DNA from: Escherichia phage vB_EcoS_ACG-M12
Sequence record: NC_019404.1
Reading direction: 5' to 3' (one strand)
Length of the DNA: 46,054 nt
Shown here: one piece after another, positions 10,450 through 37,016 of the stretch
Layout: each line of letters opens with the position of its first letter
How positions within the stretch are numbered: the stretch's first letter is position 1
Translations under genes and position numbers: made by a program
The notes under the pieces: generated by a model
What the model saw: the letters and a program-made list of their open reading frames with translations, nothing else
Told to the model about the DNA's origin: nothing
The model's database searches: none

Positions 10450-10455
10450 TAAATC

Positions 10456-10510: not shown

Positions 10511-10541
10511 TCACTCAATCAGATAAACAAAGGAGAAAAAA

Positions 10542-10787: not shown

Positions 10788-10793
10788 TAAACA

Positions 10794-10815
10794 GGGCGCT
10801 TCGGCGTCCTTTATT
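10794..10815 (+). terminator. rho-independent terminator
   Basis: GGGCGC-ttcg-GCGTCC followed by TTTATT. Confidence 0.5.
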
Positions 10816-10828
10816 GTATGGAGCTAAT

Positions 10829-12028: not shown

Positions 12029-12419
12029 ATTATCATTAGCAGCAAGGAAATTCGTCGACGATTTGTTGGTAAATGAATTTCCGGTCAGGTATCCAGTTGC
12101 GTGGGAGAATTGTAAGTTTACCCCCCCTGCCGATGGCTCAATCTGGCTTAAGTACGACTACACGGAAGTTGACACCGTAACTTACGGATTAAGCAGGAAG
12201 TGCAAATACTACGTAGGCATGGTGCAGGTTTCTGTTTTCTTCAGTCCTGGAACTGGAATTGACAGGCCCAGACAGATCGCTAATCAATTGGCAGAATCTA
12301 TCGTTGATGGTACAATGCTTGACAGCGGGACCATTTATGAGTCTGGAGTTGTTAACCCCGTTATCAAATCCAAGTCTGGGTGGTTTATCCCGGTTCGTTT
12401 TTATGTTCGTCTAGACTAA
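12018..12419 (+). CDS. tail terminator candidate (133 aa)
   Basis: GTG start 7 nt after GGAGG; positional call. Confidence 0.4.
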   Translation: MQYELSLAARKFVDDLLVNEFPVRYPVAWENCKFTPPADGSIWLKYDYTEVDTVTYGLSRKCKYYVGMVQVSVFFSPGTGIDRPRQIANQLAESIVDGTMLDSGTIYESGVVNPVIKSKSGWFIPVRFYVRLD

Positions 12420-12434
12420 CAAAAGGAAAAATAC

Positions 12435-13091
12435 ATGGCCCATCTCAGCAATGGCACGCAGGTCTTCGTAGAAGGCTCTCGCGGAGCTGCAATTGACGTA
12501 ACAGCAATTTCTAACGCAGTTACACCTGTTTTAACTGTATCTGACGCATCCGGCGTGGCTGAGGGTGATTACCTGCTTTTCACCTCCTCAGCCTCTGCGC
12601 TTCTGGCTGACAAGCAAGTTCGCGTAACCGCAGTCTCTGGCACCTCGGTAACTGTTGAGGGTATTGATACCTCAAGCACTACCAAATTCCCTGCTGGTTT
12701 AACTGGTGAGGTTGTCAAGATTACTTCATGGTTCGAAGTTCCGTGCGTTCAGGACGTATCTACTGACGGCGGCGAGCAGCAGTTCGTTAACTTCCAGTGT
12801 CTTTCTGATGACCGTGAACAGCAGATTCCGACTTATAAATCTGCCGTAACAAACACCTTTACCTTTGCTCACGAGTACACCAACCCGGTTTATCCGGTTC
12901 TGCGTAACTACGATGAGTCTGGCCAGGTTGTTGCGATTCGCCTGTTCGTACCTCGCGCTCAGGAAATGCGCTTGCAGTCCGGCACTATCGCTTTCAACGA
13001 CACCCCTACCATTGGTGTTAACGAAATCGAAACGGTATCTATCGCGGTATCCATTCGTGGTCGCTTGTCCTCCGTGGCAGCTGAAGTTTAA
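12435..13091 (+). CDS. major tail protein (218 aa)
   Basis: Position directly upstream of the chaperone/tape-measure genes; followed by a strong terminator. Confidence 0.6.
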   Translation: MAHLSNGTQVFVEGSRGAAIDVTAISNAVTPVLTVSDASGVAEGDYLLFTSSASALLADKQVRVTAVSGTSVTVEGIDTSSTTKFPAGLTGEVVKITSWFEVPCVQDVSTDGGEQQFVNFQCLSDDREQQIPTYKSAVTNTFTFAHEYTNPVYPVLRNYDESGQVVAIRLFVPRAQEMRLQSGTIAFNDTPTIGVNEIETVSIAVSIRGRLSSVAAEV

Positions 13092-13098
13092 AACACAA

Positions 13099-13121
13099 AC
13101 CCTCTTCGGAGGGTTTTTTTA
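13099..13121 (+). terminator. rho-independent terminator
   Basis: ACCCTC-ttcg-GAGGGT plus T7. Confidence 0.7.
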
Positions 13122-13124
13122 TTG

Positions 13125-13200
13125 ATAGCACTTTTTGTTAAAGACTAAAAATCAAAATGCTGTATAGTTCAATCATCGAAACGAAATGAGAAATTAAGAA
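13125..13200 (+). promoter_or_regulatory. conserved intergenic cassette (GATAGCACTTTTTGTTAAA ... TGTATAGTT ... CATCGAAACGAAATGAG)
   Basis: Precedes gene 13201. Confidence 0.5.
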
Positions 13201-13467
13201 ATGAATAGTAAGTTAGAAGTATTATCCGCACTTCGCGGCCCTATTTGTGTAGCTGCGCTGGTTGCCTTTTATGCAGCAGTTCAGATTATCAACCCAACAA
13301 GAGCGGAAACAGCAAACTCTGACGCGGCAAAATACAATTCGGTTTTCTCTGAGCACAAGGCAATCTGCGAGAAGGCTTCTGGTAGCAAGATTGATCAGGT
13401 TCTGAAGTATGGCAAGGAAATCTGCGTAGATATCGCGCACGACATTGCAAAAGAAAGCACTAAGTAA
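13201..13467 (+). CDS. hypothetical protein with N-terminal hydrophobic segment (88 aa), moron-like, inside the tail module
   Basis: Own cassette; hydrophobic stretch ICVAALVAFYAAVQII near the N-terminus. Confidence 0.45.
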   Translation: MNSKLEVLSALRGPICVAALVAFYAAVQIINPTRAETANSDAAKYNSVFSEHKAICEKASGSKIDQVLKYGKEICVDIAHDIAKESTK

Positions 13468-19332: not shown

Positions 19333-20091
19333 ATGTTAACACCAAAGGTTAAGCTGGAAATCTTCCAGCACGCAAAAGAAATTTACCCGCATGAGTGCTG
19401 CGGAGTTGTAACGCAGAAGGGTCGGGCGCAGAAATATCACAGAATCACTAACGCCAGCAAAGACCCCGAGAACGAGTTCATTCTTGATTCAAACGAGTAT
19501 GCAGATGTTCTCTTTGAATTGGCTCACAATGAATCTATTGTTTACGTAGTTCACTCTCACACAGGCGACGGAGCAACAACAAGGCCAAGTCCTGCGGATA
19601 TTTGTAGCTGCAATGAGTGCGAGATTCCGTATGTTATCGTAAGTATCCCAGAGGGAGATATGCGGATTCTTGAGCCGTCAACCATGCCTCTGATTGGTCG
19701 CCCGTGGGGGCTTGGTAGCTTTGATTGCTGGGAGATGGTTATGTCGTTTCACAAGAAATACGGAGTAAAACTGAATGACTACCGCGTTAATTACCCGTGG
19801 TGGGAGAAACGGTACAATGAAAATATCTATGACGACAACTGGGTTGAGGAAGGATTTGAGCTGGTGAAAACTTCAGATATTCCCATTGGCTCAATGATTA
19901 TGATGCAAGTGCAAAGCGAGGTGACAAACCACGCCGGAATCTATATTGGCAATAACAGATTCATCCACCATCTATATGGTAAAATGAGTTCAGTAGATAT
20001 CTATTCCGATTACTGGCGCGAGCGCACGGTGCGAATTGTTCGCCATAAGGATTTACCAGAGGATGTAATTTATGACCCAGAAACTGATTGA
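19333..20091 (+). CDS. tail tip assembly protein, lambda K-like (MPN/JAB plus NlpC/P60-like, 252 aa)
   Basis: HPHECCG...VVHSHTGDG JAB-type metal motif; C-terminal Cys/His peptidase-like region; start at the ATG after GGAG. Confidence 0.65.
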   Translation: MLTPKVKLEIFQHAKEIYPHECCGVVTQKGRAQKYHRITNASKDPENEFILDSNEYADVLFELAHNESIVYVVHSHTGDGATTRPSPADICSCNECEIPYVIVSIPEGDMRILEPSTMPLIGRPWGLGSFDCWEMVMSFHKKYGVKLNDYRVNYPWWEKRYNENIYDDNWVEEGFELVKTSDIPIGSMIMMQVQSEVTNHAGIYIGNNRFIHHLYGKMSSVDIYSDYWRERTVRIVRHKDLPEDVIYDPETD

Positions 20092-20644
20092 TATTAAGTT
20101 AGGCCTGTCACTAGGTCGTAAGTTTGGAAAGATTCACCAGATGGCAGTGAATAGCGTGCCTGAAGCAATGCGAGCGCTTTGCTCTCAGATCCCTGCTTTC
20201 AAAGAGTTCATGAATAGCCATATAGGGCAAAACGCAAGGTACGCAGTATTTGTAGATGGTAAAAATGTGAACGAGCATCGAATCTCTGATTTTAGTGCCG
20301 TTCAGGAGATACGCATCTTGCCAATCCCGCAAGGCCGAAAGTCAGGCGGTTTGTTTCAAACAATTTTGGGTGCCGCGCTTATCACGGTAGGTATCTTCAC
20401 TGGTCAGATTTATCTTGTCGGCGCTGGCGTTTCCCTAGCTGCTGGTGGTATTGCTCAGCTGTTATCACCGCAAGCAACTGGATTGAAGACTCAGAACAAC
20501 CAAACAAGCAACCGTGCATCATACGCATTCGGATCCGCTGTAAACACAGTGGCCGCTGGATATCCAGTCTGCCTACCATATGGCTATCGAACGGTTGGCG
20601 GCTCGGTGTTTAGTGCTGGCAGCTACGCCGAAGACAATGCTTAA
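20072..20644 (+). CDS. tail assembly protein, lambda I-like (190 aa)
   Basis: Overlaps the K-like 3' end; hydrophobic Gly-rich middle segment; position before the J-like gene. Confidence 0.55.
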   Translation: MTQKLIDIKLGLSLGRKFGKIHQMAVNSVPEAMRALCSQIPAFKEFMNSHIGQNARYAVFVDGKNVNEHRISDFSAVQEIRILPIPQGRKSGGLFQTILGAALITVGIFTGQIYLVGAGVSLAAGGIAQLLSPQATGLKTQNNQTSNRASYAFGSAVNTVAAGYPVCLPYGYRTVGGSVFSAGSYAEDNA

Positions 20645-20651
20645 ATATCAT

Positions 20652-20675
20652 ACCCGCCTAGTGCGGGTTTTTTAT
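20652..20675 (+). terminator. terminator-like hairpin
   Basis: CCCGC-ctagt-GCGGG plus T6. Confidence 0.5.
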
Positions 20676-20724
20676 TTAGTGTAGAATGGCACAAATGATC
20701 AAAACAAACATGAGGCTTTGTGAT

Positions 20725-23700
20725 ATGGCTGAAGAGATTAAGATTTATGGTGCTAAGGGTGGTAGCCAGAAGCAGCACCAACCAGTGGAACAAGAAGACA
20801 ACCTGATTTCATTAAACAAGGTTAAGGTATTACTTGCGGTTGCTGACGGCGAGGTGGATCCAAACTTCTCAATGAAGGATTTATACCTTGCTGACGTTCC
20901 GGTGCAAAACCAGGATGGCAGCTACAACTACGAGGGTGTTCGCGCTGAGTTCCGTGCTGGTACGCAGTATCAGGACTATATCGCTGGCCTTGATGGTGCT
21001 AACTCAGAGATTCAGGCTTCCAGGGAAATCACAAACGACACCCCGTACATCATTGCGGTTAACAATAACCAGCTATCGGCAATTAGAGTCAAACTTTTTT
21101 GGCCTCGGTTGGTTAAGCAAGAAAGTAACGGGGACCTGAACGGAACAACCTGCGAGTATGCGATTGACCTTTCCGTTAATGGTGGAGCATATCAGGAATA
21201 CACTCGCGGAGTTGCTAACGGGAAGACCACTACAGGTTACGACCGCAGCATTCGCGTGAACCTTCCTGCAGAGTTTGATAGCGCATTGGTTCGCATCCGT
21301 AAGATTACAGCAGATTCAACAAGTAGCACGCTGGTTAACGGAATGCAGATTACAACCTATCAGGAAGTAATCGACGCTAAATTCCGCTATCCGCTTACGG
21401 CACTTGTTTATGTTGAGTTCGGCTCTGACTTGTTCCCTAACGGCATCCCGACAATCTCAATCAAGAAGCGATGGAAGTTAATTCAGGTCCCAACGAACTA
21501 TGATCCTGAGACTAGAACCTACAGCGGCACGTGGAATGGACTGTTCAAGATGGCATGTTCAAACAACCCGGCGTGGGTTCTCTATGACTTAGTGACAAAC
21601 CGCCGATATGGTCTTGATCAGCGAGAGCTTGGTGTAGGGATTGATAAATGGGGACTGTATGAAGCTGCGCAATTCTGCGACCAGATGGTGCCGGATGGTA
21701 AGGGTGGAATGGAACCGCGATATCTATGCGACATGGTTGTACAGAACAAGGTTGAGGCCTACACACTAATTCGTGACATTTGCTCAATCTTTCGTGGACT
21801 GACTTTCTATGATGGCGAAAAGATTGGTATCGTGGTTGATAAGCCTCGCAATCCATCTTACATCTTCACTAATGATAACGTTGTAAACGGATTATTCAGC
21901 CGCACTTTTGCCAGCGATAAAAGCCTTTACACTACGGCAAACGTTCAGTTTGATGATGTGGAGAACAACTATCAGCAGGATGTTGAGCCAGTATTTGAGC
22001 TCGAGGCTACTCGCCGATTTGGTTTTAACCCGGTCGACCTAACGGCAATTGGATGTACGCGAAGAAGTGAAGCAAACAGACGCGGAAGATGGCTACTGAA
22101 AACCAACCTGAGAAGCGAAACTATCAGCTTCACTACCGGGTTGGAAGGCATGATTCCGATGATTGGTGAGGTTATTGCGGTTAATGACGCTGCATGGTCG
22201 AGCAACTACCAGTTAAACCTTTCCGGTCGTATTGAATCAGTTCAGGGATTGCAGGTTTTCACCCCGTTCAAAGTTGACGCGGCACCGGGTGACAGAATTC
22301 TTCTGAACAAGCCTGACGGAAGCCCGGAAGCAAGAACTATCGCCAGCGTTTCGGAAGATGGTAGAACTATCAACCTGAATACTGCTTTTAGTTTTGTAGC
22401 TCAGCCTGACACTGTATTCGCAATCGATAAGGATAATCTGGCGCTTCAGCAGTATGTTGTGACCGGGATTCAAAAAGCAGATTCTGATGGTTCGGATTCA
22501 TTCCAGTATACGATTACCGCGGTGGAGTATGACCCGAACAAGTATGACGAGATTGACTACGGCGTTAACATTGTTGACCGTCCAACTTCAATTGTGGAAC
22601 CTGACAGATTATCGCCACCAGAAAACCTGACCGTGTCAAGTTATAGTAAGGTTGTTCAGGGCTTGTCGGTTGAGACGATGGTTATCGGATGGGATAAGGC
22701 TCCATACGCTAAAACCTACAATGTTCAATGGAGGAAAGAAAATGGTAACTGGATTAACGTACCCAGAACAGCAAGTACAGATGTTGATATCGAAGGTATT
22801 TACGCAGGAATCTATGACGTTAGGGTTCGCAGCGTATCAGATACTGAAAACGTGTCTGCCTGGTCTGACATTGTAACTGTATCACTAACTGGCAAGATTG
22901 GACGTCCTTCGGCACCTACGGTTATCACGGCGTCAACTGATGAGGTATTTGGCATCCGTGTTAAATGGGGATTCCCTGATAGCTCTGGTGATACTGCTTA
23001 CACTGAGCTTCAGCAGGTTCCTGATAATGGCGATGGTACTTACAATCCTGATAACGCAAGCTTGCTGACGTTGCTGCCTTATCCAGCCTATGAATACTGG
23101 CATACGCCTATTCAGCCAGGTAAGGTTATCTGGTATCGCGCAAGATTGATTGACAGGATCGGAAACACCTCTGATTGGTCTGATTTCGCTAGAGGCATGA
23201 GTACTGACGACGCCAACATTATCAATGATTACATCAAGGTTGATATAGAGGGTTCGGAAGGATTCAAATACCTCGAGCAGAATGCGATTCAAAAGAATCA
23301 TGACATTCAGAATCAGGCAGAGTCAATTCTTGAGAATGCATTAGCTAATGATGCCGATGTTCGCCGGATGACCAAGGAGAACGGCAAACGTAAGGCTGAA
23401 TATGTTCAGACGGTGAATCTCATAGCCGATGAAACTCAGGCACGCGTAGAGGCTCTCACCGCACTTAAAGCGCAGATAGATGATGAAGTTGTAGCATCGA
23501 TTACGAAAGTTCAGACAGCGCTAGCTACCGAGACAGAAGCAAGGACCACCGCAGACACGGCTCTATCAGCAAGACTCGGTGATAACGAGGCGGCGATAAA
23601 CCAGAAATTAGACGCATTTTCCAATGCCACCTCAACTGGCGTGCAGTACGGAATTAGTCTTGGCCTGAAATACAATGGTCAGACTTATTCATCCGGCATG

Positions 23701-24111
23701 AGCATGGAGCTCGTTGGCACTGGTGATAACGTTCGTAGTCAATTCATTTTTGACGCAAACAGGTTTGCGATCAGTAACGGCATCGGTTCTGGCTCCGGTC
23801 AGTGGCAACTACCCTTCGTTGTCGAGAACGGAAACGTAATAATCCAGAGCGCAGTAATCGGAGATGGCTCAATCACTAACGCGAAGATTGGCAATAGGAT
23901 CCAATCTAATAACTACGTTGCTGGATCTCAAGGTTGGGCGATTGATAAGTCAGGAAGTGCAGAGCTAAGTAACGCCACTGTAAGGGGTAATCTTTACGCT
24001 AACAATGGCAACTTCGCATTTAACGGAACCAATAACACGGTTCAGATTAACAATAACGGAATCACTGTAAACTTACCTAACGGAGGAAGAGTGGTAGTTG
24101 GAGTGTGGTAA
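20725..24111 (+). CDS. central tail fibre/host specificity protein, lambda J-like (about 1128 aa)
   Basis: Size, position after the I-like gene, fibronectin-like middle and Gly/Asn-rich C-terminus; start at the ATG after GAGG (alternative ATG at 20686). Confidence 0.75.
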   Translation: MAEEIKIYGAKGGSQKQHQPVEQEDNLISLNKVKVLLAVADGEVDPNFSMKDLYLADVPVQNQDGSYNYEGVRAEFRAGTQYQDYIAGLDGANSEIQASREITNDTPYIIAVNNNQLSAIRVKLFWPRLVKQESNGDLNGTTCEYAIDLSVNGGAYQEYTRGVANGKTTTGYDRSIRVNLPAEFDSALVRIRKITADSTSSTLVNGMQITTYQEVIDAKFRYPLTALVYVEFGSDLFPNGIPTISIKKRWKLIQVPTNYDPETRTYSGTWNGLFKMACSNNPAWVLYDLVTNRRYGLDQRELGVGIDKWGLYEAAQFCDQMVPDGKGGMEPRYLCDMVVQNKVEAYTLIRDICSIFRGLTFYDGEKIGIVVDKPRNPSYIFTNDNVVNGLFSRTFASDKSLYTTANVQFDDVENNYQQDVEPVFELEATRRFGFNPVDLTAIGCTRRSEANRRGRWLLKTNLRSETISFTTGLEGMIPMIGEVIAVNDAAWSSNYQLNLSGRIESVQGLQVFTPFKVDAAPGDRILLNKPDGSPEARTIASVSEDGRTINLNTAFSFVAQPDTVFAIDKDNLALQQYVVTGIQKADSDGSDSFQYTITAVEYDPNKYDEIDYGVNIVDRPTSIVEPDRLSPPENLTVSSYSKVVQGLSVETMVIGWDKAPYAKTYNVQWRKENGNWINVPRTASTDVDIEGIYAGIYDVRVRSVSDTENVSAWSDIVTVSLTGKIGRPSAPTVITASTDEVFGIRVKWGFPDSSGDTAYTELQQVPDNGDGTYNPDNASLLTLLPYPAYEYWHTPIQPGKVIWYRARLIDRIGNTSDWSDFARGMSTDDANIINDYIKVDIEGSEGFKYLEQNAIQKNHDIQNQAESILENALANDADVRRMTKENGKRKAEYVQTVNLIADETQARVEALTALKAQIDDEVVASITKVQTALATETEARTTADTALSARLGDNEAAINQKLDAFSNATSTGVQYGISLGLKYNGQTYSSGMSMELVGTGDNVRSQFIFDANRFAISNGIGSGSGQWQLPFVVENGNVIIQSAVIGDGSITNAKIGNRIQSNNYVAGSQGWAIDKSGSAELSNATVRGNLYANNGNFAFNGTNNTVQINNNGITVNLPNGGRVVVGVW

Positions 24112-24114
24112 TAA

Positions 24115-24144
24115 ATAAAGCCCCTTAATTGGGGCTTTTCTTTT
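24115..24144. terminator. bidirectional terminator between convergent genes
   Basis: AGCCCC-ttaatt-GGGGCT flanked by an A-run and a T-run. Confidence 0.65.
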
Positions 24145-25105
24145 AGTAGAAGCTTGGAATAAATGGAAGTGCCATTGATATATTTGTGTCGAAAGGGAAC
24201 TGAGCGCCAGTCTGAGTTGAATAGTTACCTATTACAGAGCCAGGAACAGCCCTAACAGAGCCTCCAGACATGCAAACGCCCTTGTATCGCAAGTTGTTAT
24301 ATCCTCCAGTAACTCTAGTCGTAGCGCCACATCTAAGAATAGGGAAGAATCCACCATTTATTGACTGATATCCATTGCTTATTTGTATAAATCCACTAAG
24401 TACGAATGGTCGCCTAACGCTTGAAAAAACAATCTGACCAGAGCTATTTGACATTGTTAGTCCTGGTCCGGCTGGTGGGGGTTCATTTCTGAATATCACC
24501 AGCTGAACATAAGTACTTGCCGAAACATCATCTGTACCTCCGTAGGTTATATCCCTGCACCATATTGTTGATCCATCTGATTCAAGTGATACGTTTGGAT
24601 TATCCCACTTGCCGAATGGTATGCCGCTAACTGGTAGCGATGCCGCCCCGTTAACCTGTATGCCTCCAACCCATGCTGCTGACATTAGTCTCGAGTTGCT
24701 TGATATAGCAAGGAAATCAGTTGAGTTCTCAACGAGTATCCCTGGGCTTGATGAAGGTGATGCTGGTAGAATTTCAAAACAATTACCCGCAAAGTCAATT
24801 ATTCGACCATTGGCACCATTGAAGTTACTAAGTGTTATCCTGCCAACTCCGTCATTAACCTTTTGGAATCCGTTCATGTAATAAACTTCAGGTATAACAT
24901 CGTAAGCATCAACGTGGACTGCCTTCGTTGGTAGGCAGAAAGCCGTAGAGCCAGGAGACATTGTCAATCCAAAATCCCACGAACTTGCTGGGGTTGAAAG
25001 TCCATTGGTATTTATTGATCCAGTCACAGCAGGTGCCCTTAATCCTGCCGTTATTTCCATCGCTGGTCTTCCGTCATTGAGGTCAATCAATATACCCTGC
25101 GGCAT
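24143..25105 (-). CDS. beta-rich Gly/Ser/Asn-rich protein (320 aa), possibly receptor-binding or tail-associated
   Basis: Composition only; last gene of the minus operon; start at the ATG after AAGGAG. Confidence 0.35.
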   Translation of the reverse strand: MPQGILIDLNDGRPAMEITAGLRAPAVTGSINTNGLSTPASSWDFGLTMSPGSTAFCLPTKAVHVDAYDVIPEVYYMNGFQKVNDGVGRITLSNFNGANGRIIDFAGNCFEILPASPSSSPGILVENSTDFLAISSNSRLMSAAWVGGIQVNGAASLPVSGIPFGKWDNPNVSLESDGSTIWCRDITYGGTDDVSASTYVQLVIFRNEPPPAGPGLTMSNSSGQIVFSSVRRPFVLSGFIQISNGYQSINGGFFPILRCGATTRVTGGYNNLRYKGVCMSGGSVRAVPGSVIGNYSTQTGAQFPFDTNISMALPFIPSFY

Positions 25106-25356
25106 TATTTCCACTCCTTGCTGCCATGATCTGCAATAGAGCCACCGTAACCGCCGCCAGCCTTGCTTTCAATTCCGGCGTAGCGAACATCAACCTCACC
25201 AGCCGGAACAACTACGCCACCTTTCCATTTAGCTACGCACACACCATTTGCTTGTGTTGCACACCAACCATCCGGGCGAGGACCAGATGAGCAACCTACC
25301 ATCATGATTGCTGCTGCGGCGATGATTGAAAGTTTGATTAATTTAGTCATTTTCAT
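25105..25356 (-). CDS. lipoprotein (83 aa), Cor-like superinfection-exclusion candidate
   Basis: Signal peptide with lipobox MMVGC|SS; small size; located next to the tail fibre genes as cor is in T1/phi80-type phages (from memory). Confidence 0.45.
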
Positions 25357-25436
25357 GTTCCTTAGAATGTGTGTTTCGTTTTGATGGAGTAATCATATCT
25401 TAACTGTTAGGTTTGTCTTTAGCTATTCGTGCTATT
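25357..25436 (-). promoter_or_regulatory. conserved intergenic cassette, minus orientation
   Basis: Reverse complement reads AATAGCACGAATAGCTAAA ... leader CCATCAAAACGAAAC before the lipoprotein gene. Confidence 0.45.
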
Positions 25437-25679
25437 CAACCATCTGTTATATTTATCCCTCTCCTTGATTGCCTTTTCAAGTGACTTGAATCTTAAAAGT
25501 AGCGGCATACAGTCAACACCCATAATTAAGGATTCGTCGCAGCTATTTGCGCCAGTCAGCCAAAGAGAGAAGTATTGTTGATCGAGGCCGTAGTTCCTGT
25601 CTTTATTGACCCTAACGCTAACAACTTTAAATTTTAAACCAGCCAACTTAACCTTATCTATAAATTCTGACTTATTCAT
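25419..25679 (-). CDS. hypothetical protein (86 aa) ending ...NSTNS
   Basis: ATG 8 nt after AAGGAG; C-terminus encoded by the dyad box. Confidence 0.45.
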   Translation of the reverse strand: MNKSEFIDKVKLAGLKFKVVSVRVNKDRNYGLDQQYFSLWLTGANSCDESLIMGVDCMPLLLRFKSLEKAIKERDKYNRWLNSTNS

Positions 25680-25753
25680 CTTGTTGCTCCTTTTTAGTTT
25701 ACCTGGAAATGGTACATCACCCATGAGATTTGTCTTTAGCAATTAGTGCTATT
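25680..25753 (-). promoter_or_regulatory. conserved intergenic cassette, minus orientation
   Basis: Reverse complement of 25735-25753 reads AATAGCACTAATTGCTAAA; precedes gene 25419..25679. Confidence 0.45.
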
Positions 25754-26050
25754 GGTTACGCGTAACCGATGTAACTCGATGTATACCATATCCATCCGCG
25801 GGAAATCAGTTACGCCATATTGCGCACAGTTACGCTTTAGTTACACTAAAATATCTATATATATAAAGGGTTTAGATAATTATTATTATTATCTATATAT
25901 ATAGTGTAACTGCTGCAACTCATAATATTGGTATGTTGCGTTTGTTTTTCTATATGATGATTATCTTTGTTATCTGGCGTGGCTAAATGGATGTAGGGTG
26001 TGGTGCACCACATAAAAGATACCGTTACATTGGTTACATGTGAGTTACAT
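25754..26050. repeat. GTTAC/GTAAC iteron cluster with 14-bp perfect palindrome GGTTACGCGTAACC (25754-25767) and (TTA)n run (about 25878-25891)
   Basis: Direct repeats CAGTTACGC at 25808 and 25827; further GTTAC copies at 25839, 25906, 26023, 26033, 26045; divergent intergenic region. Confidence 0.6.
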
Positions 26051-26177
26051 TGAGGATTTATGCGGTCTGCGGTGGCTAAAAACGTAACAAAGGAGAGCCT
26101 ATACATGAAATTACGTCATTTGACGCGTAATCATAATTTATTAATCGGTGATATCTATTGGACTGCGCTGCCACCCT

Positions 26178-26225
26178 CTCATATGATCAACCCATCGAAA
26201 GCAAACAACCATAGAGAGACGCAAA
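26178..26225 (+). promoter_or_regulatory. -10-like box plus CCATCGAAAGC leader upstream of gene 26226
   Basis: CTCATATGATCAACCCATCGAAAGC resembles the cassette leader; no dyad box. Confidence 0.3.
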
Positions 26226-26420
26226 ATGGCTTACTTCATCATTAAAGAGAAAAACAACGCACTATTCGGCGACTGCTACTTCGGAGGTGAGGCAGGTTAC
26301 ACTACAGATAAGAATGAGGCAGACCGATTTGAAACGAAGGAAGATGCCAAATCTGTCCTGACCGGATACTTCACAGAAGAAGATTTTAAATTGGTTAAGA
26401 TTGTTAAGGTTAAGGAGTGA
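26226..26420 (+). CDS. hypothetical protein (64 aa)
   Basis: ATG after AGAGAGA; first gene of the recombination operon. Confidence 0.45.
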   Translation: MAYFIIKEKNNALFGDCYFGGEAGYTTDKNEADRFETKEDAKSVLTGYFTEEDFKLVKIVKVKE

Positions 26421-26423
26421 ATC

Positions 26424-26621
26424 ATGAAGGCTTTTATAGACATAAATAAGTCACCATACAACGACGAACCGGATCCTGAGGTAAGAATAAGGATAAAATT
26501 TAAAACTGGAAGAGAGATAAACATAACAACAACATGCTCTGGTATATCAAAAGCGATAATGGGATGCAGTGAAATCCCTGTAGATGTATCACTTAGAAAT
26601 GTAGAGGTTAAAATAAAATGA
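26424..26621 (+). CDS. hypothetical protein (65 aa)
   Basis: SD AAGGAG; overlap-coupled to the exonuclease gene. Confidence 0.45.
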   Translation: MKAFIDINKSPYNDEPDPEVRIRIKFKTGREINITTTCSGISKAIMGCSEIPVDVSLRNVEVKIK

Positions 26622-27583
26622 CATTCAAAGTCTACACGCGAGAAGAGTTAAGCAACGAAGAGTACCACTCTGAAACTGATCACATCTCTGGCAGTTCACT
26701 AGTTGAGATTATCCAGGGTTCACCAGCAAAGTGGAAGTTCAAGCAGCTCAACAGTTGTAGCAAGGCTCTTAAGTTTGGCACATTAAGCCACTGCATGATT
26801 CTAGAACAAGATGTGTTCGATAAAGAATACCTTCGAGCAACAGACCTTGAAGCTATTGAGGGGTTAATTACAAGTCAGACCGCATTATCGGCAGCACTGA
26901 AAAAAGTTGGTGTAGCTGGCACGTCAGGGAAGGGCTATAGCGAGCTTGTAGAGATGATGTATCGCTCTGGTGAGGATTGGCCTATTAAATGGTTAATTGA
27001 GCAGCAGGAGAGCGCTCAGGCTCTTGTAGAGGGTAAGGAACTGGTAAGCGCAGCGGACTACGACAAAGTGGTAGCGATGCGCGAGGTTCTCTGCAACATT
27101 CCGGCATATGATAAGATTGTTAACAGCGAAACGGCGCAGAAAGAGTTATCAATCTTTGGTGAGATTCTCGGTGTAGGAGTGAAGATTCGAATTGATCACG
27201 TAGATGTAATTGATGGTGTTGTGATGATCAACGATTACAAGACGACGGCAGATGCAGGCCCTGAAGGATTCGGCAAATCGGCCTTCTCTCACGGATACCT
27301 GGCAAAAATGTCACTTCAGCGCGATCTGTTTGTTAAGGCATTTAACGAAAAGAGAAAGGTCGTAGTTGGCCTTCTGGCGCAGGAGAAGGTGGAACCATAC
27401 CTTCCTATGAGGTACATATTGACTGACGAGCAACTTCGCATTGGAAGGCTACAGTATATTGAAGCGCTAGCTACTTACAAGAAGTGCAAAGAGCTTGATA
27501 TTTGGCCTGGTTATTCAAATGGAATTACAGAGCAAGAACTGATGATTCCTGATTGGGCAATTAAGCAGTATAAAGAGATCTAA
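26618..27583 (+). CDS. PD-(D/E)XK recombination exonuclease (321 aa)
   Basis: IDHVDV...MINDYKTT catalytic D...D/E-x-K arrangement; directly upstream of Erf and SSB. Confidence 0.6.
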   Translation: MTFKVYTREELSNEEYHSETDHISGSSLVEIIQGSPAKWKFKQLNSCSKALKFGTLSHCMILEQDVFDKEYLRATDLEAIEGLITSQTALSAALKKVGVAGTSGKGYSELVEMMYRSGEDWPIKWLIEQQESAQALVEGKELVSAADYDKVVAMREVLCNIPAYDKIVNSETAQKELSIFGEILGVGVKIRIDHVDVIDGVVMINDYKTTADAGPEGFGKSAFSHGYLAKMSLQRDLFVKAFNEKRKVVVGLLAQEKVEPYLPMRYILTDEQLRIGRLQYIEALATYKKCKELDIWPGYSNGITEQELMIPDWAIKQYKEI

Positions 27584-27655
27584 ATAGCACGAATTGCTAA
27601 AAAAAATGGGATATCTGAGGTATAGTTATCCCATCAACAGCGAACGAGGTTAAAG
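27583..27655 (+). promoter_or_regulatory. conserved intergenic cassette (AATAGCACGAATTGCTAAA ... GGTATAGTTATCC ... CATCAACAGCGAACGAGG)
   Basis: Box at 27583-27601; TATAGTTA at 27621-27628. Confidence 0.55.
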
Positions 27656-28306
27656 ATGCAAATTTCAGAATCATGCAAATCAATTTTAAACGCGCTACAC
27701 ACTGCAAAAGCAATGTTTGCAAAGGCTGAGCGCTCTAAGCAGAACTCGCACCTTAAAAACAAGTACGCAACATTAGATGATGTTTTAGCAGCCGTGGAGC
27801 CTGGTTTAGATGAGTGTGGGCTTGTAATGTTTCAGAGCGTAATTGATAGTGAAGCAACGGGGCTGCTAAAGGTAGAGACAAAGCTATTCCACGCAGAGTC
27901 AGGGGAGTGGGTTAGCTTCTTAATGATTGTTCCAATCAGCAAGAATGATGCTCAAGGTTACGGTTCTGCGCTCACATATGCTCGACGCTACGGCATTACA
28001 GCAGCTTTAGGTCTTAGTCAGGCAGATGACGATGGTAATCTAGCAGCGAAAGGTGTTAAAGACTTTAAGCGTGAGCTTGAAAAGTGCAACACTCTTGATG
28101 AGCTTCGTAACGTCTGGAAAGAAGCCAAGCAATCACTAGATGCTGCTGGATGGAAGGTTTTCGAACCTCACATTATCGAGCGAAAGGCAGAGATTGAGGC
28201 TAACGCGGCAACTGGCTTCAACCCAGCTACGCCAAAGAAAGTTGCAGAAAAAAGTAGTACTCAAGAAAAAGTTGAAGTAGAATCTCAACAAATCGACACA
28301 TTCTAA
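27656..28306 (+). CDS. erf: Erf-family single-strand annealing protein (216 aa)
   Basis: NSHLKNKYATLDDVLAAVEP and GSALTYARRYG segments match P22 Erf signature regions as recalled from memory. Confidence 0.65.
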   Translation: MQISESCKSILNALHTAKAMFAKAERSKQNSHLKNKYATLDDVLAAVEPGLDECGLVMFQSVIDSEATGLLKVETKLFHAESGEWVSFLMIVPISKNDAQGYGSALTYARRYGITAALGLSQADDDGNLAAKGVKDFKRELEKCNTLDELRNVWKEAKQSLDAAGWKVFEPHIIERKAEIEANAATGFNPATPKKVAEKSSTQEKVEVESQQIDTF

Positions 28307-28353
28307 ATTAAACGGGGCTTCGGCCCCAACATAAAACGAGAAGAGAGAATAAC

Positions 28354-28815
28354 ATGCACGTAATTACAGGTCAGATTCGCAAAGCTCCTTACACTAAAGA
28401 TGGTCAGAATGCCAAAGGTAACTGGAAAATGTACGCCATCGAGATGAGCGAATCATACAAGACTAAAGATGGCGAGCGTAAGTACAGTAATTACCGGATT
28501 ACGATGTTTGCCAGTGAGGCGCAGATTAGTTGGTATGATGAAGCATTTCAGGAAGGAAAAGTTATTTCTGTTAGTGGTGATTCATTGGCGGTTAATGAGC
28601 GTGAGCATAATGGAAAGGTTTATATTACGCTTGAGTTGCAGAATCCTCGATTGATGTTTAGCCAGCGCGGCAGTGAATTAGCTACACAGCAACAGCGCCA
28701 GCAGCATCAGCAACAGCAGCGGCAGCAACCACAGCATCAAAGCCAGTTTGAAGACGATATTCCGTTTGCTCCTATTGGTCTTCAGTACGGTATGTCAAAT
28801 ATTTATGTACTATAA
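28354..28815 (+). CDS. ssb: single-stranded DNA-binding protein (153 aa)
   Basis: Gln-rich linker QQQRQQHQQQQRQQ followed by the acidic tip FEDDIPF; unusual 15-aa extension after DDIPF. Confidence 0.7.
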   Translation: MHVITGQIRKAPYTKDGQNAKGNWKMYAIEMSESYKTKDGERKYSNYRITMFASEAQISWYDEAFQEGKVISVSGDSLAVNEREHNGKVYITLELQNPRLMFSQRGSELATQQQRQQHQQQQRQQPQHQSQFEDDIPFAPIGLQYGMSNIYVL

Positions 28816-29215
28816 AGTCTGTTTCAAATGTGGTGGGCTTAAGCCCATCACGGAGTTCTATAAACATAAAGCCATGGCTGACGGACGTGTAAATAAGTGT
28901 AATGAATGCAATAATGTTGATGTTAAATCAAATAGAAAATCAAAAATAGAATATTACAGAGAGTACGATAGAGAAAGGGGCAATAGACAGAAGGATGGTT
29001 ACGTTAAGGAGTATAGATCAAGAAACCCCATAAAATATAATTGCCACACGATTTTAAATAACGCTATAAGGGATGGTAAGATCAATAAAAAACCTTGCGA
29101 GGTTTGCGGGAATGATAAGGCGGTAGCTCATCATGATGATTACTCAAAACCAATGGATGTAAGATGGCTATGCCAAGCTCACCATATGCAATGGCACGCA
29201 GAAAACGGAGAATGA
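28805..29215 (+). CDS. HNH endonuclease with zinc ribbon (136 aa)
   Basis: CxxC ... CxxC (CFKCGG, CNEC) and AHHDDYS...WLCQAHHMQWH; start at the in-frame ATG overlapping the ssb 3' end (track start is TTG). Confidence 0.6.
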   Translation: MYYKVCFKCGGLKPITEFYKHKAMADGRVNKCNECNNVDVKSNRKSKIEYYREYDRERGNRQKDGYVKEYRSRNPIKYNCHTILNNAIRDGKINKKPCEVCGNDKAVAHHDDYSKPMDVRWLCQAHHMQWHAENGE

Positions 29216-29231
29216 TTAAACGGATAAAAGA

Positions 29232-29257
29232 TAAGGCCCCCTTCGGGGCCTTTTTTA
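29232..29257. terminator. bidirectional terminator between convergent genes
   Basis: AGGCCCCC-ttcg-GGGGCCT plus T6. Confidence 0.7.
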
Positions 29258-32074
29258 CGAAGCTGTATTTACCTGAAGATATGCACCATTAGTTGCACCA
29301 AACCATGCGTAAGCAGATCCGTAAGTTGTTGGGTTGTCATTTAAAATGAAATCACCCGCTCTAATTACGCACTTTGCTCCATATGTATCAGTGGGTCTTG
29401 CACTAAACCCATAGTCAACATATCTAAAACCAACCTTCGTTACGTTATCGTTAAGCGGGAAGATCCTTAAGAAGCTGGAATCTCTAAAGTCATTGTTCCT
29501 GAAAATTCCTCCTGTAAAGTTATCCATATCAAACATTGTTGTTAAACTTGAAGCAACAGTATTCATGAACTTGTTGCCTTCATATGTCGGAGCTACTACT
29601 TCATAGCCAACTCTTAGCTGAACAAATCCCCCATCAATAATATTGTCCTTGACTATTGGATATTGCCCGCCGATTGCTAAGCCACCAAACCCAGGTGTAA
29701 ATTTGCAACTATTATTACTAAATATAGTGCCAACCCACGCCTGATTTGTAAGGTATGGTGCCTTAGTGTCTGTCATGGTGTTCCCGGTGATAATCAATCC
29801 ATTCTTGGCCTGGATTCCCTCCTGGTAGCCCTGAATCGCTACGCCGCCACCAATCATAATGTTGCTGGATATAATAATGTTGCTCAACCCCTCATTAACA
29901 CCCCAATCACTTTCTGCATCATTTGTTATCAGTAAGTAGTGAGAAGAAGCCCTGCCAGTAGCGTCCGTAGTTATAATGCTTGTATTGCCTTTGCATATAA
30001 CATTGTTTGCCGCAAAAACCTCAACAAACATACCAGCACCTTCGTAGTAGTTATCCGTAACCGTTACGTTATTGCCAGCCGGGGTTATCCTTGACTGGAT
30101 AGATATTGGATAATAGAACTTGTTGGCGTGAGCGTAAGACCTTCGGCTTCCCTCGGATATTGCATAATCCTCCGCGAAAGTATGCCATGCCCTTCCTGAC
30201 TGTTTTGTTGTGTTTCCTATAAACTCTGAGTAGTCACAGTTTCTTGTGATTAAGCAGTAGTTAGCGTTGTATCTGAAGCTTGAATTTCTAAGAGATACGA
30301 ATGCATTAGGTAAGCCATTAAGAGCATCGGCATTAACAAAGGCCCTCGAGGCATTAACCTCCATACCCTCGATCACAACTGATGCGCATCCTTCAACCAT
30401 AAAACCAAACCAGTCTTCTCTTGGTTTATGCTCTGTATCCGTTGGTTGGATTGAGTAATCTGAAAAGTCAGTATTCCAGTTGAGTCCGCTAGCTTTAAAT
30501 GTGCAATATTTAAGCCCGAAAACAACCCTCTCGGGTGATGTGCTTCCAGAGATATCAATATCAACATCATTATTGGCAAAAATGTCAACAGTAAGTCCAT
30601 TGAGGAAGAATGCCGTTTGCCTTAACACTCTGTACTTATCATTGTACTGAACACCATCGGAGAATGAGACTTTCAGTCTTCCAGCGCTAATTCTTACCTT
30701 CCTGTTTGTATTGTGACCAAGGTTTATACATGCCATAACCGAGGCGTTTGATTCATTAACTCCAGACACATCATGACCAGCCCATTCGGTATGGATATCA
30801 TCAACACCTCCCGTAAACCTAACCCAGCAACCATTTTTACCTGGTGATGTCTCACCCGCTCCGCTAAGGAATCCTGGGAGCGTGGAATATGTACCATCAA
30901 ATGGAACTGTTGGGCTAAAGATGGTAACCCCATTGTGACTACTCTTGCTTACTGATGGATCCCAGTAAAACAAACCACCTCCAGAGTTTGCTCCAGAAAT
31001 ATAAGACCTGACATTTGCCAAGTTTCCATTCGTAGTTGGTTGCCGGATTAGTTCATAAATTGAATTAACTGAAGATAGCCCTAAATTACTCCTGGCAAGG
31101 CTTTTATCTTCAATATCAGAGAAATTCAATGATTTGTTGAAAGTCTCAGATTTTGAATAAACATCAAGTAAGCCCCTTACTCGCTGGGCGCTAGCTCCGC
31201 CAACCTGACTTCCTGATGCGACATAAAGCGCCTCTCTTGAATAGTAAGTTTTGCTTGGTGCCGTGCCAGTCTGAGTTAAATCAATCACCCTGTACGCATT
31301 ATCTGAGCCGGTAGATGCTGAAACTTGTATGTTCTTAACACCAGTAAGCCCCCTTGCTGACTTAACCTCAATCGTACAAAGTGTGCTATCGGAGTAGGTT
31401 GTATTTATCACCTCTGGAGCGTTGATCATTGCTGACTTTTGGCATAGGTATCTAGCCCCGGACTTGAAATCAAACGTATTCCAGTCAAGTTCTGTCAACT
31501 GAGGTGTATTCGAGCCACCAATACCAATATTGGCAAGAGTTACCAAAGTACCAGCGTCACCAGCATTATTAATTGCTGCAATTGTAGCGTCACGGGCAGC
31601 TGTTGTTGTGTTTCTTGCACTAACAGCAGTAGCAGCGCTATCTGCGGCGGCAATCTGGCTAGCTAAAGCATCCGCTGCTCCTTGCACTGACTGGCTTGCC
31701 AATTGCTCAAAGCGAGGCCAATCAAAAGAATCCTGACCAATGAAATCAATCAGGCTCTGAATGCTAGTTTCCCTACTCTGATAATAACGAAGTGTCTCCG
31801 CTACATTTTGAGCCAAACCCTGAACGCTAATCCCATCATGAGCAAGAATGGCATATCCAGTACCAGCAGGAACAGTTTCGCCATTTGGGTTATATACAGA
31901 CAATGAAGTGTCGCTGGTGATTTCAGAGATGGTGTAAATCTGCACAGGCTCTGTTTTGAATACAATTGTAGCACCAACACGGATTAGCGTTAGTGGCATG
32001 GTCCATTGAGTGCCAACACCAGTAACTTGACCGTTAGCTGCTAAACTGGCAGTTCCAGTATCATAAATTGCCAT
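29255..32074 (-). CDS. tail fibre/receptor-binding protein, possibly with a beta-helix domain (939 aa)
   Basis: N-terminus MAIYDTGTASLAANGQVTGVGTQW typical of fibre N-termini; Ala-rich shaft; Asn/Gly/Thr-rich C-terminal two-thirds; start at the ATG after GGAG. Confidence 0.6.
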   Translation of the reverse strand: MAIYDTGTASLAANGQVTGVGTQWTMPLTLIRVGATIVFKTEPVQIYTISEITSDTSLSVYNPNGETVPAGTGYAILAHDGISVQGLAQNVAETLRYYQSRETSIQSLIDFIGQDSFDWPRFEQLASQSVQGAADALASQIAAADSAATAVSARNTTTAARDATIAAINNAGDAGTLVTLANIGIGGSNTPQLTELDWNTFDFKSGARYLCQKSAMINAPEVINTTYSDSTLCTIEVKSARGLTGVKNIQVSASTGSDNAYRVIDLTQTGTAPSKTYYSREALYVASGSQVGGASAQRVRGLLDVYSKSETFNKSLNFSDIEDKSLARSNLGLSSVNSIYELIRQPTTNGNLANVRSYISGANSGGGLFYWDPSVSKSSHNGVTIFSPTVPFDGTYSTLPGFLSGAGETSPGKNGCWVRFTGGVDDIHTEWAGHDVSGVNESNASVMACINLGHNTNRKVRISAGRLKVSFSDGVQYNDKYRVLRQTAFFLNGLTVDIFANNDVDIDISGSTSPERVVFGLKYCTFKASGLNWNTDFSDYSIQPTDTEHKPREDWFGFMVEGCASVVIEGMEVNASRAFVNADALNGLPNAFVSLRNSSFRYNANYCLITRNCDYSEFIGNTTKQSGRAWHTFAEDYAISEGSRRSYAHANKFYYPISIQSRITPAGNNVTVTDNYYEGAGMFVEVFAANNVICKGNTSIITTDATGRASSHYLLITNDAESDWGVNEGLSNIIISSNIMIGGGVAIQGYQEGIQAKNGLIITGNTMTDTKAPYLTNQAWVGTIFSNNSCKFTPGFGGLAIGGQYPIVKDNIIDGGFVQLRVGYEVVAPTYEGNKFMNTVASSLTTMFDMDNFTGGIFRNNDFRDSSFLRIFPLNDNVTKVGFRYVDYGFSARPTDTYGAKCVIRAGDFILNDNPTTYGSAYAWFGATNGAYLQVNTAS

Positions 32075-32140: not shown

Positions 32141-32162
32141 AAAAAAACCTCCCGAAGGAGGT
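32141..32162 (-). terminator. rho-independent terminator for the minus-strand primase transcript
   Basis: Reverse complement reads ACCTCC-ttcg-GGAGGT plus T7. Confidence 0.65.
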
Positions 32163-33088
32163 TAGTTATTCAATAAATCACTTGCCTTATATATCTTCTT
32201 CCTTATTCCGCTCTTGAATGAGTTTTCATCATTTGGTATTACCACATCAAGATTGCGATCATCAGCAACGGCGAGTAAATCAAAATCATGACGAGTACAA
32301 GCGACGCGTAACTTGTAGTCTCTAAGCGCATAAGCAACCATTTCCATGTTGTAACTGGAGTAGCAAACAAGCACACACCGGTTGCCAGTAGCAAGATGAA
32401 CGCGAACACCATCAATCCAATTATCGACCAGATAAGAGTACTCATCATCCTTAAGGGAACCAATAACAGAAACAGATTGGCGAGAATAATCTTTTGCAGC
32501 ATAACTAACATCTCCTTCCTCATTGATAAACATTACATTGCACATTTCTTCTGATATACCGTCACTATAAGCCATGAAGCACGGTATTGCGTGTATTAAT
32601 TCACCGGATTTTGTCCTACCAACATCAAATCCAAACTCGCTATAAATACCCTCGTATGTACTTAGCGGGGTTGATTCTACTCTTTCCGTCCTTTCCAGTA
32701 TCTCTAAGCATCTTTCGTGGTCAATCTGCGCGCCCATCTTGTATGGTGATGTCCTCGATGCTCTTTTGTTTGCTTTAGCTACTATCTCAACTGGAACCAG
32801 ATTTAACCAGTCACCTAATACATTTATACACTCACTAAAAGACTCTCCTCTTAGTTTCTGCACCCACAAAATTCCATCGCCTGACCCACACTGGTTGCAA
32901 ATGATTCCACCATCCCCAGGTTCACTAACTTTATCAGTCCACCTGCTACGGTCATTACCGCCACAATACAAGCATGGTTGATGCTTCTTAGTTTTAAAGA
33001 AGTTTGGGTCTGCCCCGCAAATCTGAACCATTGCGTCAGCCCATAAACCTTTCATCTTTTGTAGTACTTCTTTCTTATCGTGATTCAT
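32162..33088 (-). CDS. DNA primase-like protein with N-terminal zinc-binding motif (308 aa)
   Basis: CLYCGG-x17-CNQCG zinc ribbon near the N-terminus; start at the ATG 5 nt after GGAGG. Confidence 0.45.
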   Translation of the reverse strand: MNHDKKEVLQKMKGLWADAMVQICGADPNFFKTKKHQPCLYCGGNDRSRWTDKVSEPGDGGIICNQCGSGDGILWVQKLRGESFSECINVLGDWLNLVPVEIVAKANKRASRTSPYKMGAQIDHERCLEILERTERVESTPLSTYEGIYSEFGFDVGRTKSGELIHAIPCFMAYSDGISEEMCNVMFINEEGDVSYAAKDYSRQSVSVIGSLKDDEYSYLVDNWIDGVRVHLATGNRCVLVCYSSYNMEMVAYALRDYKLRVACTRHDFDLLAVADDRNLDVVIPNDENSFKSGIRKKIYKASDLLNN

Positions 33089-36440: not shown

Positions 36441-36598
36441 TGAGAGAGGCAATCGTAAACTGGAAAACCGGAGAAGATTCAAAGTTCTTCTTCAATACAT
36501 TCTCACAATATATTGACAAGTTTGTTTTCGTGATTGATGGTGGATGTGAGGTTGTTGTTCCAATTAATCTGGTTGATGTATTGGAGGTATCAGAATAA
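36440..36598 (+). CDS. hypothetical small protein (52 aa)
   Basis: TAATG overlaps at both ends; below the track cutoff. Confidence 0.35.
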   Translation: MREAIVNWKTGEDSKFFFNTFSQYIDKFVFVIDGGCEVVVPINLVDVLEVSE

Positions 36599-36819
36599 TG
36601 GCAATTTTTACATTTGAGAATCAATGGGAAGTATTTAAATTAATGGCAGTCCAGGAGCTAAAGAAATCTGGGTATAACAAAAACCCATGGGACTTAGTAT
36701 TTTGTCTTGACATGAGCTTTGAAGAAGACTACCTGAATACCGACATCGAAACATGGCGCGACCGCATGGTTGCTGATATCGAAGAAATGAAGAAAGATTG
36801 CCATGAGGATTTCTTATGA
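36598..36819 (+). CDS. hypothetical small protein (73 aa)
   Basis: ATG overlap-coupled. Confidence 0.4.
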   Translation: MAIFTFENQWEVFKLMAVQELKKSGYNKNPWDLVFCLDMSFEEDYLNTDIETWRDRMVADIEEMKKDCHEDFL

Positions 36820-37016
36820 TTAATAATAGACCGTTCGTTGTTACGTTTAAGCCAAGAAACAACACCCCACGGATGGATATTGATGAGTACCTTCTGAAAC
36901 GAGGAAATAGCTATTTTGTTCTTGAAATTTCAGCAGACTCAGATAGGTATATAGTAAAAAACGATGCTGGTATTGTTGTTAGTGTTTCAAAATTGGATGT
37001 GGAGATTGTGAGATGA
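36816..37016 (+). CDS. hypothetical small protein (66 aa)
   Basis: ATGA overlap. Confidence 0.4.
   Translation: MINNRPFVVTFKPRNNTPRMDIDEYLLKRGNSYFVLEISADSDRYIVKNDAGIVVSVSKLDVEIVR

Follow-up and report, generated by a model that had tools for sequence, protein, structure and literature searches.

A mosaic tail fibre gene of Escherichia phage vB_EcoS_ACG-M12 encodes a putative beta-helix tailspike probably directed at O6-family O-antigen

Tailspikes are a well-known class of phage proteins, and several of those already described stand close to the product of a minus-strand gene of Escherichia phage vB_EcoS_ACG-M12 (NC_019404.1) that has so far been annotated as a tail fibre; the window, that is, the whole stretch of DNA analysed, has 46,054 bp and is the complete genome of this Guelphvirus phage (Drexlerviridae). 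Depo32 and DpK2, the lateral depolymerase tailspikes of Klebsiella Drexlerviridae phages, degrade the Klebsiella K2 capsule. The characterised tailspikes of P22, Sf6 and HK620, encoded at a prophage position equivalent to that of the homologues described below, are endoglycosidases. Phage phiEB49 (Drexlerviridae, Rogunavirinae, Lindendrivevirus) depends by experiment on the O6 antigen: it gave 0 plaque-forming units on waaL, wzy and waaG mutants of strain CFT073 and complementation restored plating, the K2 capsule was not needed and acted as a barrier at 37 °C, and the phage gene behind the O6 dependence was not named (PMC12488582). The O16-dependent tailspikes of Kagunavirus and Skatevirus are also modular, with variable anchors and a horizontally exchanged beta-helix domain, and these pectin-lyase-like enzymatic proteins make the O-antigen an essential receptor (PMC11990801). 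For the Drexlerviridae, the BASEL authors proposed that lateral fibres bind the O-antigen as a dispensable primary receptor (PMC8594841). We found that the vB_EcoS_ACG-M12 protein joins an anchor of the siphovirus lateral-fibre type to a separately inherited receptor-binding module with homologues among prophage tailspikes. At a probability of about 0.65, we read it as an O6-family O-antigen tailspike, the lateral receptor-binding protein of a T1-like siphovirus, composed of this N-module anchor and a beta-helix receptor module that is probably an endo-glycoside hydrolase. The novelty lies in recognising the protein as a beta-helix tailspike from a lineage so far uncharacterised, for which we infer O6-family specificity.

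The likeness to Depo32 and DpK2 resides in the N-terminal part. In a phmmer search of the PDB, residues 1-182 matched three 'Depolymerase' entries (E 4.5e-33 to 5.4e-32), namely 7vz3 and 7vyv, which we take to be Depo32 of phage GH-K3, and 7lzj, presumably DpK2 of phage RAD2, both from Klebsiella T1-like Drexlerviridae phages; identity was near-continuous over residues 1-102. A first-pass annotation, made from the letters alone, had proposed an attachment domain here followed by an Ala-rich shaft, and both assignments hold. Anchor and neck are homologous to those of Depo32 and DpK2 over residues 1-182, and the PHROG tail-fibre families match mainly the N-terminus, apart from phrog_24092, which matches the protein over its full length. 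The Ala content is 25% over residues 121-200, and the AlphaFold2 monomer model (56-sequence alignment, mean predicted local distance difference test score, pLDDT, of 80.4) has a beta-rich domain at residues 1-80 with modest confidence and helices at 87-112 and 119-170 with low pLDDT. The low score of the helical neck is expected, because the model is a monomer of a presumed trimeric neck, and residues 111-182 probably form a trimeric coiled coil. Beyond residue 182 the phmmer search with the protein gave no PDB sequence match, and the likeness to Depo32 and DpK2 is one of fold only; the anchor family is therefore common to these proteins and the enzyme family is not. The receptor module of vB_EcoS_ACG-M12 belongs to another lineage, common to the tailspikes of Salmonella and Citrobacter prophages, and its target would be O-antigen and not K2 capsule.

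The mosaic origin of the gene was analysed by a search with residues 200-939 combined with bookkeeping of the BLAST alignment boundaries. The N-module (residues 1 to about 311-343) is found at 60-90% identity in fibres of 570-960 aa from phage contigs of about 45 kb, and these siblings carry unrelated C-termini with Beta_helix, Pectate_lyase_3 or Peptidase_S74 domains; the connector domain is inherited together with residues 1-182 in fibres of this kind. The C-module (318/333-939) shows 72% identity to phiEB49 gp24, is 58-62% identical in proteins where it stands behind a P22 Head_binding (PF09008) or a CBA120-type Tail_spike_N (PF18668) domain, such as the 'tail spike' of Citrobacter phage K1M and the prophage tailspikes of Salmonella O40 serovars and of Citrobacter, and occurs at 33-40% in a wider set that includes Kagunavirus, Kayfunavirus and Vectrevirus phages. 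Morganella carries a copy at 37%. Alignments to relatives of the N-module stop at residues 311-343 and those to relatives of the C-module start at 318-351, and the junction lies in the disordered linker around '…DKSLARSNLGLSSVNSIYELI…'. Thus the C-terminal two-thirds, which had first been described as one region, comprise the connector and linker (183-332) plus a separately inherited module (333-939). A separate N-terminal particle-binding domain followed by a linker and exchangeable modules is one mark of the tailspike class, and here the protein shows it with a breakpoint at 318-351.

The segment by which the C-module begins, residues 333 to about 442, is found at 40-55% identity in hundreds of otherwise different proteins, and of the 632 hits in the representative library, the majority align nowhere else. 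Precomputed Pfam assignments place PF27114 'Phage_tail_beta' on the 97%-identical ECH1 protein and on nearly all homologues, while our own Pfam-A and NCBIfam scans of the protein returned 0 families, the Pfam-A copy used being older than PF27114. This entry segment may provide the upstream homology for module exchange, and the module would have been swapped by recombination at the conserved linker among siphovirus, P22-like and CBA120-type anchors.

Over residues 335-939 the model has pLDDT values mostly above 90 and shows short regular strands following a capping helix at 443-456. Foldseek matched it against the PDB with probability 1.0 to CBA120 TSP2, Acinetobacter Fri1 gp49, APK14 gp49 and the HK620 tailspike. 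From the predicted strands and these matches together, it follows that a right-handed parallel beta-helix is present, and in the predicted structure it forms the main body of the receptor-binding part, so that the beta-helix suggested at first is borne out by the AlphaFold2 model and by its tailspike matches. Structural alignments extended over 430-480 residues with tailspikes versus about 330-360 with bare beta-helix enzymes. A thin tail fibre with an S74 chaperone, or a fibrous tip like that of T5 pb1, was considered and rejected: the Pfam scan gave no match to the C-terminal Peptidase_S74 chaperone, and the model ends in a beta-helix followed by a small domain. Some siblings with the same N-module do carry PF13884 (P0052, P0059, P0060). 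The model thus favours a stubby beta-helix tailspike rather than a thin fibre.

The composition of the protein asks for some correction of the first description, which had called the C-terminal two-thirds rich in Asn, Gly and Thr and repetitive. The four residues Asn, Gly, Thr and Ser make up 35.7% of the whole tailspike versus 25.3% (standard deviation 4.8%) of the other open reading frames of the phage, a high content indeed, but per segment they range from 33 to 36% and are about even along the protein, and therefore are no mark of the C-terminal part specifically. Short strands do occupy the C-terminal 600 residues or so, but a self-BLAST gave the identity match only and TRF nothing meaningful, so that the repetition is structural, in the coils of the beta-helix. 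Compared with the HK620, P22 and Sf6 tailspikes, the fold is similar at 10-13% sequence identity, the anchor is of the siphovirus lateral-fibre type, and the catalytic residues cannot be mapped onto HK620 or P22. With no Pfam match to the P22 tailspike and no PDB sequence match beyond the N-terminus, the protein falls outside the P22-type endorhamnosidase family, though its mode of action is probably like that of the HK620 and P22 tailspikes.

The target of the module, which we strongly infer to be an O-antigen of the O6 family, can be approached from prophage context, hosts, phiEB49 genetics, the distribution of Wzy, the co-occurrence of tailspike and cluster, and cluster synteny, all of which support this recognition. 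A tailspike gene next to a gtr operon is the standard arrangement of O-antigen-specific temperate phages. The homologues of Salmonella and Citrobacter occupy the tailspike position of P22-like or lambda-like prophages. In Salmonella the prophage is P22-like, with gp7, gp20 and gp16 preceding the homologue and gtrCBA and the integrase following it, and the Citrobacter homologue comes directly after a GpJ-like gene and before gtrCBA; in the retrieved prophage loci (10245-13290 and 8197-11239) a gtrA/gtrB/gtrC-like O-antigen glucosylation operon is found immediately 3' of the tailspike homologue. Lysogens with such an operon would modify the very polysaccharide which their tailspike targets. The named Salmonella carriers of the module are serovars Johannesburg, Bukavu and Millesi, which we take to be O40 serovars in the Kauffmann-White scheme, and '40:-:1,5'. 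According to its title, the study of Jann et al. 1994 deals with variation of E. coli O6 in a side-branch sugar. A blastn search of 5426 E. coli genomes at a distant setting, aimed at prophages with the module, found one weak 270-bp match; E. coli lysogens are thus uninformative on serotype, and the Salmonella and Citrobacter prophages and Wzy were used instead.

The phages whose hosts are known or implied carry the module at 96% (PCEc3, on ATCC 25922), 72% (phiEB49, on CFT073) and 39% identity (Kagunavirus 536P11, whose name suggests strain 536 as host). We found the O-antigen cluster of CFT073, with wzx and wzy annotated as 'O6 family', and the O6 wzy at 99.9-100% identity in ATCC 25922 and 536; it is present in 154 of 5426 complete E. 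coli genomes (2.8%). Of these phages, phiEB49 invites a closer comparison: its gp24 has 60% identity across the whole protein and 72% in the receptor module, and its gene lies in the same locus order (regulator, primase, tail fibre, endonuclease, ssb), although it belongs to another subfamily and has 997 aa versus 939 aa. The gp24 protein may well be the cause of the experimentally observed O6 dependence of phiEB49 (PMC12488582), and the phiEB49 data suggest that the O-antigen is indispensable for phages with this module.

Outside E. coli, the nearest homologues of the O6 Wzy (56-62%) occur in Salmonella (one arizonae strain of serovar 40:z4,z23), Citrobacter portucalensis, C. freundii and C. 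braakii, and Enterobacter hormaechei, and a more distant one in Morganella (42%). Enterobacter aside, the taxa with an O6-like Wzy are those with the prophage module, and Morganella is the most distant in both (tailspike 37%). Tailspike and O6-like cluster occur together in the Citrobacter assembly GCA_030332445.1. The O-antigen clusters of CFT073, Citrobacter and Salmonella are collinear, with wzx, wzy and three or four glycosyltransferases 53-68% identical, and their divergence is about equal to that of the tailspike module. The clusters, of which that of E. coli O6 occupies 19575-31582 of the retrieved locus, are set apart by one glycosyltransferase and by where, or whether, they have the epimerase gene. 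In the papers searched we found no statement on the relationship of the three clusters, and literature searches on how Salmonella O40 is built chemically, or on any published link between O40 and E. coli O6, gave nothing usable.

As regards the activity of the module, an alignment of 35 sequences reaching down to 25% identity shows D479, E515, R516, R628, T632, E635, E685 and Y750 to be invariant, and E553, W555, E561, D583, W630 and H712 to be at least 90% conserved. In the DSSP string of the model, E515, E553, E635 and E685 stand at or just before strand starts on successive coils, as would be expected if these carboxylates were lined up on one face of the beta-helix. The fold leaves catalysis undecided, since hydrolases, lyases, epimerases and adhesins alike are among the top matches. 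Within the O6 cluster there are genes for GDP-mannose synthesis, for an epimerase and for four glycosyltransferases, and none for uronic acids; a beta-eliminating lyase was therefore judged improbable, and the first activity to think of is that of a glycoside hydrolase. An esterase or deacetylase was set aside because the fold is a beta-helix, whereas the tail proteins known to deacetylate O-antigen or Vi are of the SGNH type. We consider hydrolysis by the module likely. In this sense, the glycan-hydrolysing or glycan-binding activity that had been proposed for the fibre stands as to the glycan, by virtue of the gtrABC-adjacent homologues, the O6 hosts and the O6 requirement of phiEB49, while its catalytic half would depend on the invariant acidic residues.

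A tailspike that does not cut, whose beta-helix would only bind O6-type O-antigen reversibly as a lectin-like adhesin, is an alternative that we hold to be unlikely. The adhesins among the fold matches are in keeping with it, but the invariant Glu, Asp and Arg residues are retained in homologues as distant as 25% identity, in which the remainder of the module has diverged, and the close homologues are all found at the classical tailspike position of P22-like prophages, where P22, Sf6 and HK620 have endoglycosidases. Besides, BASEL 2025 reports enzymatic pectin-lyase-like tailspikes throughout the small siphoviruses (PMC11990801).

The reading as an O6-directed endo-glycoside hydrolase has points that weigh against it. 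With regard to catalysis, the conserved acids are candidates by their conservation in the alignment only; no glycoside-hydrolase, lyase or other Pfam/NCBIfam family in the local libraries matched the module; a PDB profile search with the C-module alignment returned only the foreign N-terminal anchors of homologues and marginal beta-helix fragments, and neither sequence nor profile searches of the PDB found a solved close relative. The trimeric state of the tailspike is assumed. With regard to the target, how closely the O6 and O40 polysaccharides are related in their chemistry was judged from gene clusters only, the 38% subfamily includes one Salmonella O43 houtenae strain, and the hosts of vB_EcoS_ACG-M12, ECH1 and SCS31 are recorded only as E. 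coli or Escherichia sp., with no serotype.

These host records, together with the over-representation of uropathogenic E. coli model strains among isolation hosts and the 24 amino-acid differences of the protein from that of ECH1, would also agree with an O-antigen tailspike whose specificity in vB_EcoS_ACG-M12 is not O6, the O6 link being a coincidence of laboratory isolation strains. We regard this as improbable: PCEc3, a phage of ATCC 25922, has the module at 96% identity, the O6 wzy is present in just 2.8% of complete genomes yet in 3 of 3 known hosts, and the match of taxa between the module and O6-like Wzy and clusters is independent of the choice of laboratory strains.

The least probable alternative, by a hair, is a depolymerase of capsule or exopolysaccharide (K antigen, colanic acid) by analogy with Depo32 and DpK2; every solved protein with sequence homology is a capsule depolymerase, and the fold matches include enzymes of this kind as well as capsule lyases, but the homology ends at residue 182 with beta-helix modules unrelated in sequence, the three known hosts (ATCC 25922, CFT073 and 536) share O6 and have differing K antigens, and the prophage homologues adjoin gtr operons and track the O-antigen gene cluster, not a capsule locus. 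In addition, phiEB49 infects a K2-capsule mutant like the wild type and fails on O-antigen mutants (PMC12488582).

The coordinates of the gene, of its predicted domains and of the associated features are collected in Table 1.

Table 1. Positions in the vB_EcoS_ACG-M12 window of the tailspike gene, its (partly predicted) domains and related features.
Feature	Coordinates	Strand	Basis
Complete tailspike ('tail fiber') gene, 939 aa + stop	29255..32074	-	Open reading frame list, translation, ECH1_48 annotation, full-length phrog_24092 match
N-terminal virion-anchor domain, Drexlerviridae lateral-fibre type, residues 1-110	31745..32074	-	phmmer vs PDB
Ala-rich helical neck/shaft, residues 111-182	31529..31744	-	Composition, AlphaFold2, alignment to Depo32 neck region
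Small beta-rich connector domain of N-module, residues 183-285	31220..31528	-	pLDDT about 71-92 over 190-280, several strands
Flexible linker holding the module junction (…SDIEDKSLARSNLGLSSVNSIYELI…), residues 286-332	31079..31219	-	pLDDT below 50 at 285-330
Conserved entry segment of receptor-binding module, residues 333-442 (GGGLFYWD…HNGVTIFSPTVPFDG)	30749..31078	-	Library matches, precomputed PF27114 on homologues
Capping helix (443-456) and predicted right-handed parallel beta-helix body, residues 443-865	29480..30748	-	
Stretch with invariant D479, E515 (R516), E635, E685 and near-invariant E553, E561, D583; candidate catalytic/substrate-binding residues	30020..30640	-	Alignment
C-terminal domain after the beta-helix, residues 866-939	29258..29479	-	Mixed strands and one helix, high pLDDT
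G+C-rich hairpin and T-run directly 3' of the stop, terminator between convergent genes	29233..29252	-	Terminator scan, 8 pairs, 6 G-C
Terminator-like hairpin and T-run between primase and tailspike genes	32146..32163	-	Terminator scan; CEB_EC3a terminator at equivalent site
J-like central tail fibre	20695..24111	+	phrog_31 'central tail fiber J', E = 0; 'tail protein' in ECH1

The large minus-strand fibre frame predicted at first is a real gene with exact limits: the open reading frame list and its translation give an ATG at 32074, preceded by GGAG, and a stop at 29255-29257, and the GenBank record of ECH1 has its 'tail fiber protein' (ECH1_48) at exactly 29255-32074. A GTG at 32104, which would add 10 codons, was dropped as a start because homology to the relatives begins at Met1 of the ATG form. 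The gene is set apart from the structural block and on the opposite strand to the structural genes, between the primase/regulator and the recombination genes, a conserved lateral-fibre locus of the Drexlerviridae with the same neighbours in ECH1, CEB_EC3a and phiEB49. At the site equivalent to the hairpin 3' of the stop, CEB_EC3a has terminators annotated on both strands. An HNH-type endonuclease gene (28805-29215, +) lies between ssb and the tailspike gene, as it does in ECH1 and phiEB49, whereas CEB_EC3a has none there and one between primase and regulator instead; the places that mobile endonuclease genes take up beside the fibre gene thus vary. The single-stranded-DNA-binding protein itself (28354-28815, +) has a Gln-rich low-complexity tract (…QQQRQQHQQQQRQQPQHQSQFEDDIPF) followed by the usual acidic tail.

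The J-like partner that had been suggested for the fibre does exist, as the table shows. Directly after it, at 24143-25105 (-), a 320-aa predicted membrane protein is encoded that matches phrog_1265 'moron/host takeover'; related phages have receptor-binding or superinfection-exclusion genes at this position. Asn, Gly, Thr and Ser make up 36.6% of its residues, as large a share as in the tailspike. The Kagunavirus and Skatevirus tailspikes, in contrast, are encoded immediately behind the J-like fibre and serve as the sole receptor-binding protein (PMC11990801), while the vB_EcoS_ACG-M12 tailspike occupies a separate lateral-fibre locus among replication genes and its J-like fibre has no tailspike behind it; the C-module has a 39% homologue in Kagunavirus genomes.

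Among the closest genomes, the gene region is 98.1% identical in DNA to Escherichia virus ECH1 (MN164484.2; Drexlerviridae, Braunvirinae, Guelphvirus) and 97.8% to vB_EcoS_SCS31, both of 46,054 bp. Between 20255 and 41104 we counted 276 substitutions and 0 indels relative to ECH1, and these were clustered: 56 in 27000-27500 (the exonuclease VIII gene), 42 in 29000-30000 (the C-terminal end of the tailspike), 30 in 23500-24000 (the C-terminal end of the J-like fibre) and 25 in 36500-37000. Such clustering looks like patchy recombination that included both host-range genes. The tailspike protein is 97% identical to that of ECH1, most of its amino-acid differences being at residues 818-900, and the C-module protein is 100% identical in SCS31 despite the 97.8% DNA identity of the gene. 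Two further records (PP134917.1 and PQ314493.1), 'Pseudomonas phage PsgS01F' and vB_EcoS_UALMA_PCEc3, both have 44,679 bp and practically equal matches to the tailspike gene; the host label of PsgS01F (Pseudomonas syringae pv. garcae) looks doubtful given its likeness to the E. coli phage PCEc3.

Taking the O6-directed tailspike as the preferred reading, adsorption may proceed as follows. A trimer would be attached to the tail tip through its anchor (residues 1 to about 110), with the Ala-rich neck holding it out. Its beta-helix would bind O6 chains and probably cleave them as an endo-glycoside hydrolase, with E515, E635, E685 and D479 as candidate catalytic residues. Cleavage would move the virion down through the O-antigen layer towards the outer membrane, where the J-like central fibre would then complete adsorption. 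The role in host range that had been ascribed to the fibre agrees with what we found, in view of the homologous prophage tailspikes beside gtrABC, the O6 hosts of related phages and the O6 dependence of phiEB49. Between phages of E. coli O6 and the prophages of Salmonella O40 and Citrobacter, the module has diverged by about 40%, and further still in Morganella. A bolder and more tentative proposal, against which we would still bet, is that the C-module is the first to be recognised of an uncharacterised lineage of O-antigen tailspikes which spans several genera and has co-diverged with its substrate, with a catalytic site in no described glycoside-hydrolase family and the O-antigen, as phiEB49 genetics would suggest, as an obligatory receptor and more than a barrier despite the J fibre.

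The serogroup O6 is a major one of uropathogenic E. coli, including CFT073, 536 and ATCC 25922, and comprises the probiotic strain Nissle 1917 as well. The general picture of tailspike function is unchanged by any of these findings. If true, an O6-specific tailspike would explain the narrow host range of related T1-like phages and would supply the missing gene for the published O6 dependence of phiEB49. The protein may be a reagent for the detection of O6 or for lipopolysaccharide trimming, and the clean module boundary may be a swap point for retargeting small siphoviruses. Furthermore, the parallel divergence of tailspike module and O-antigen cluster over four genera may provide a test case for the co-evolution of phages and the glycans that they recognise.

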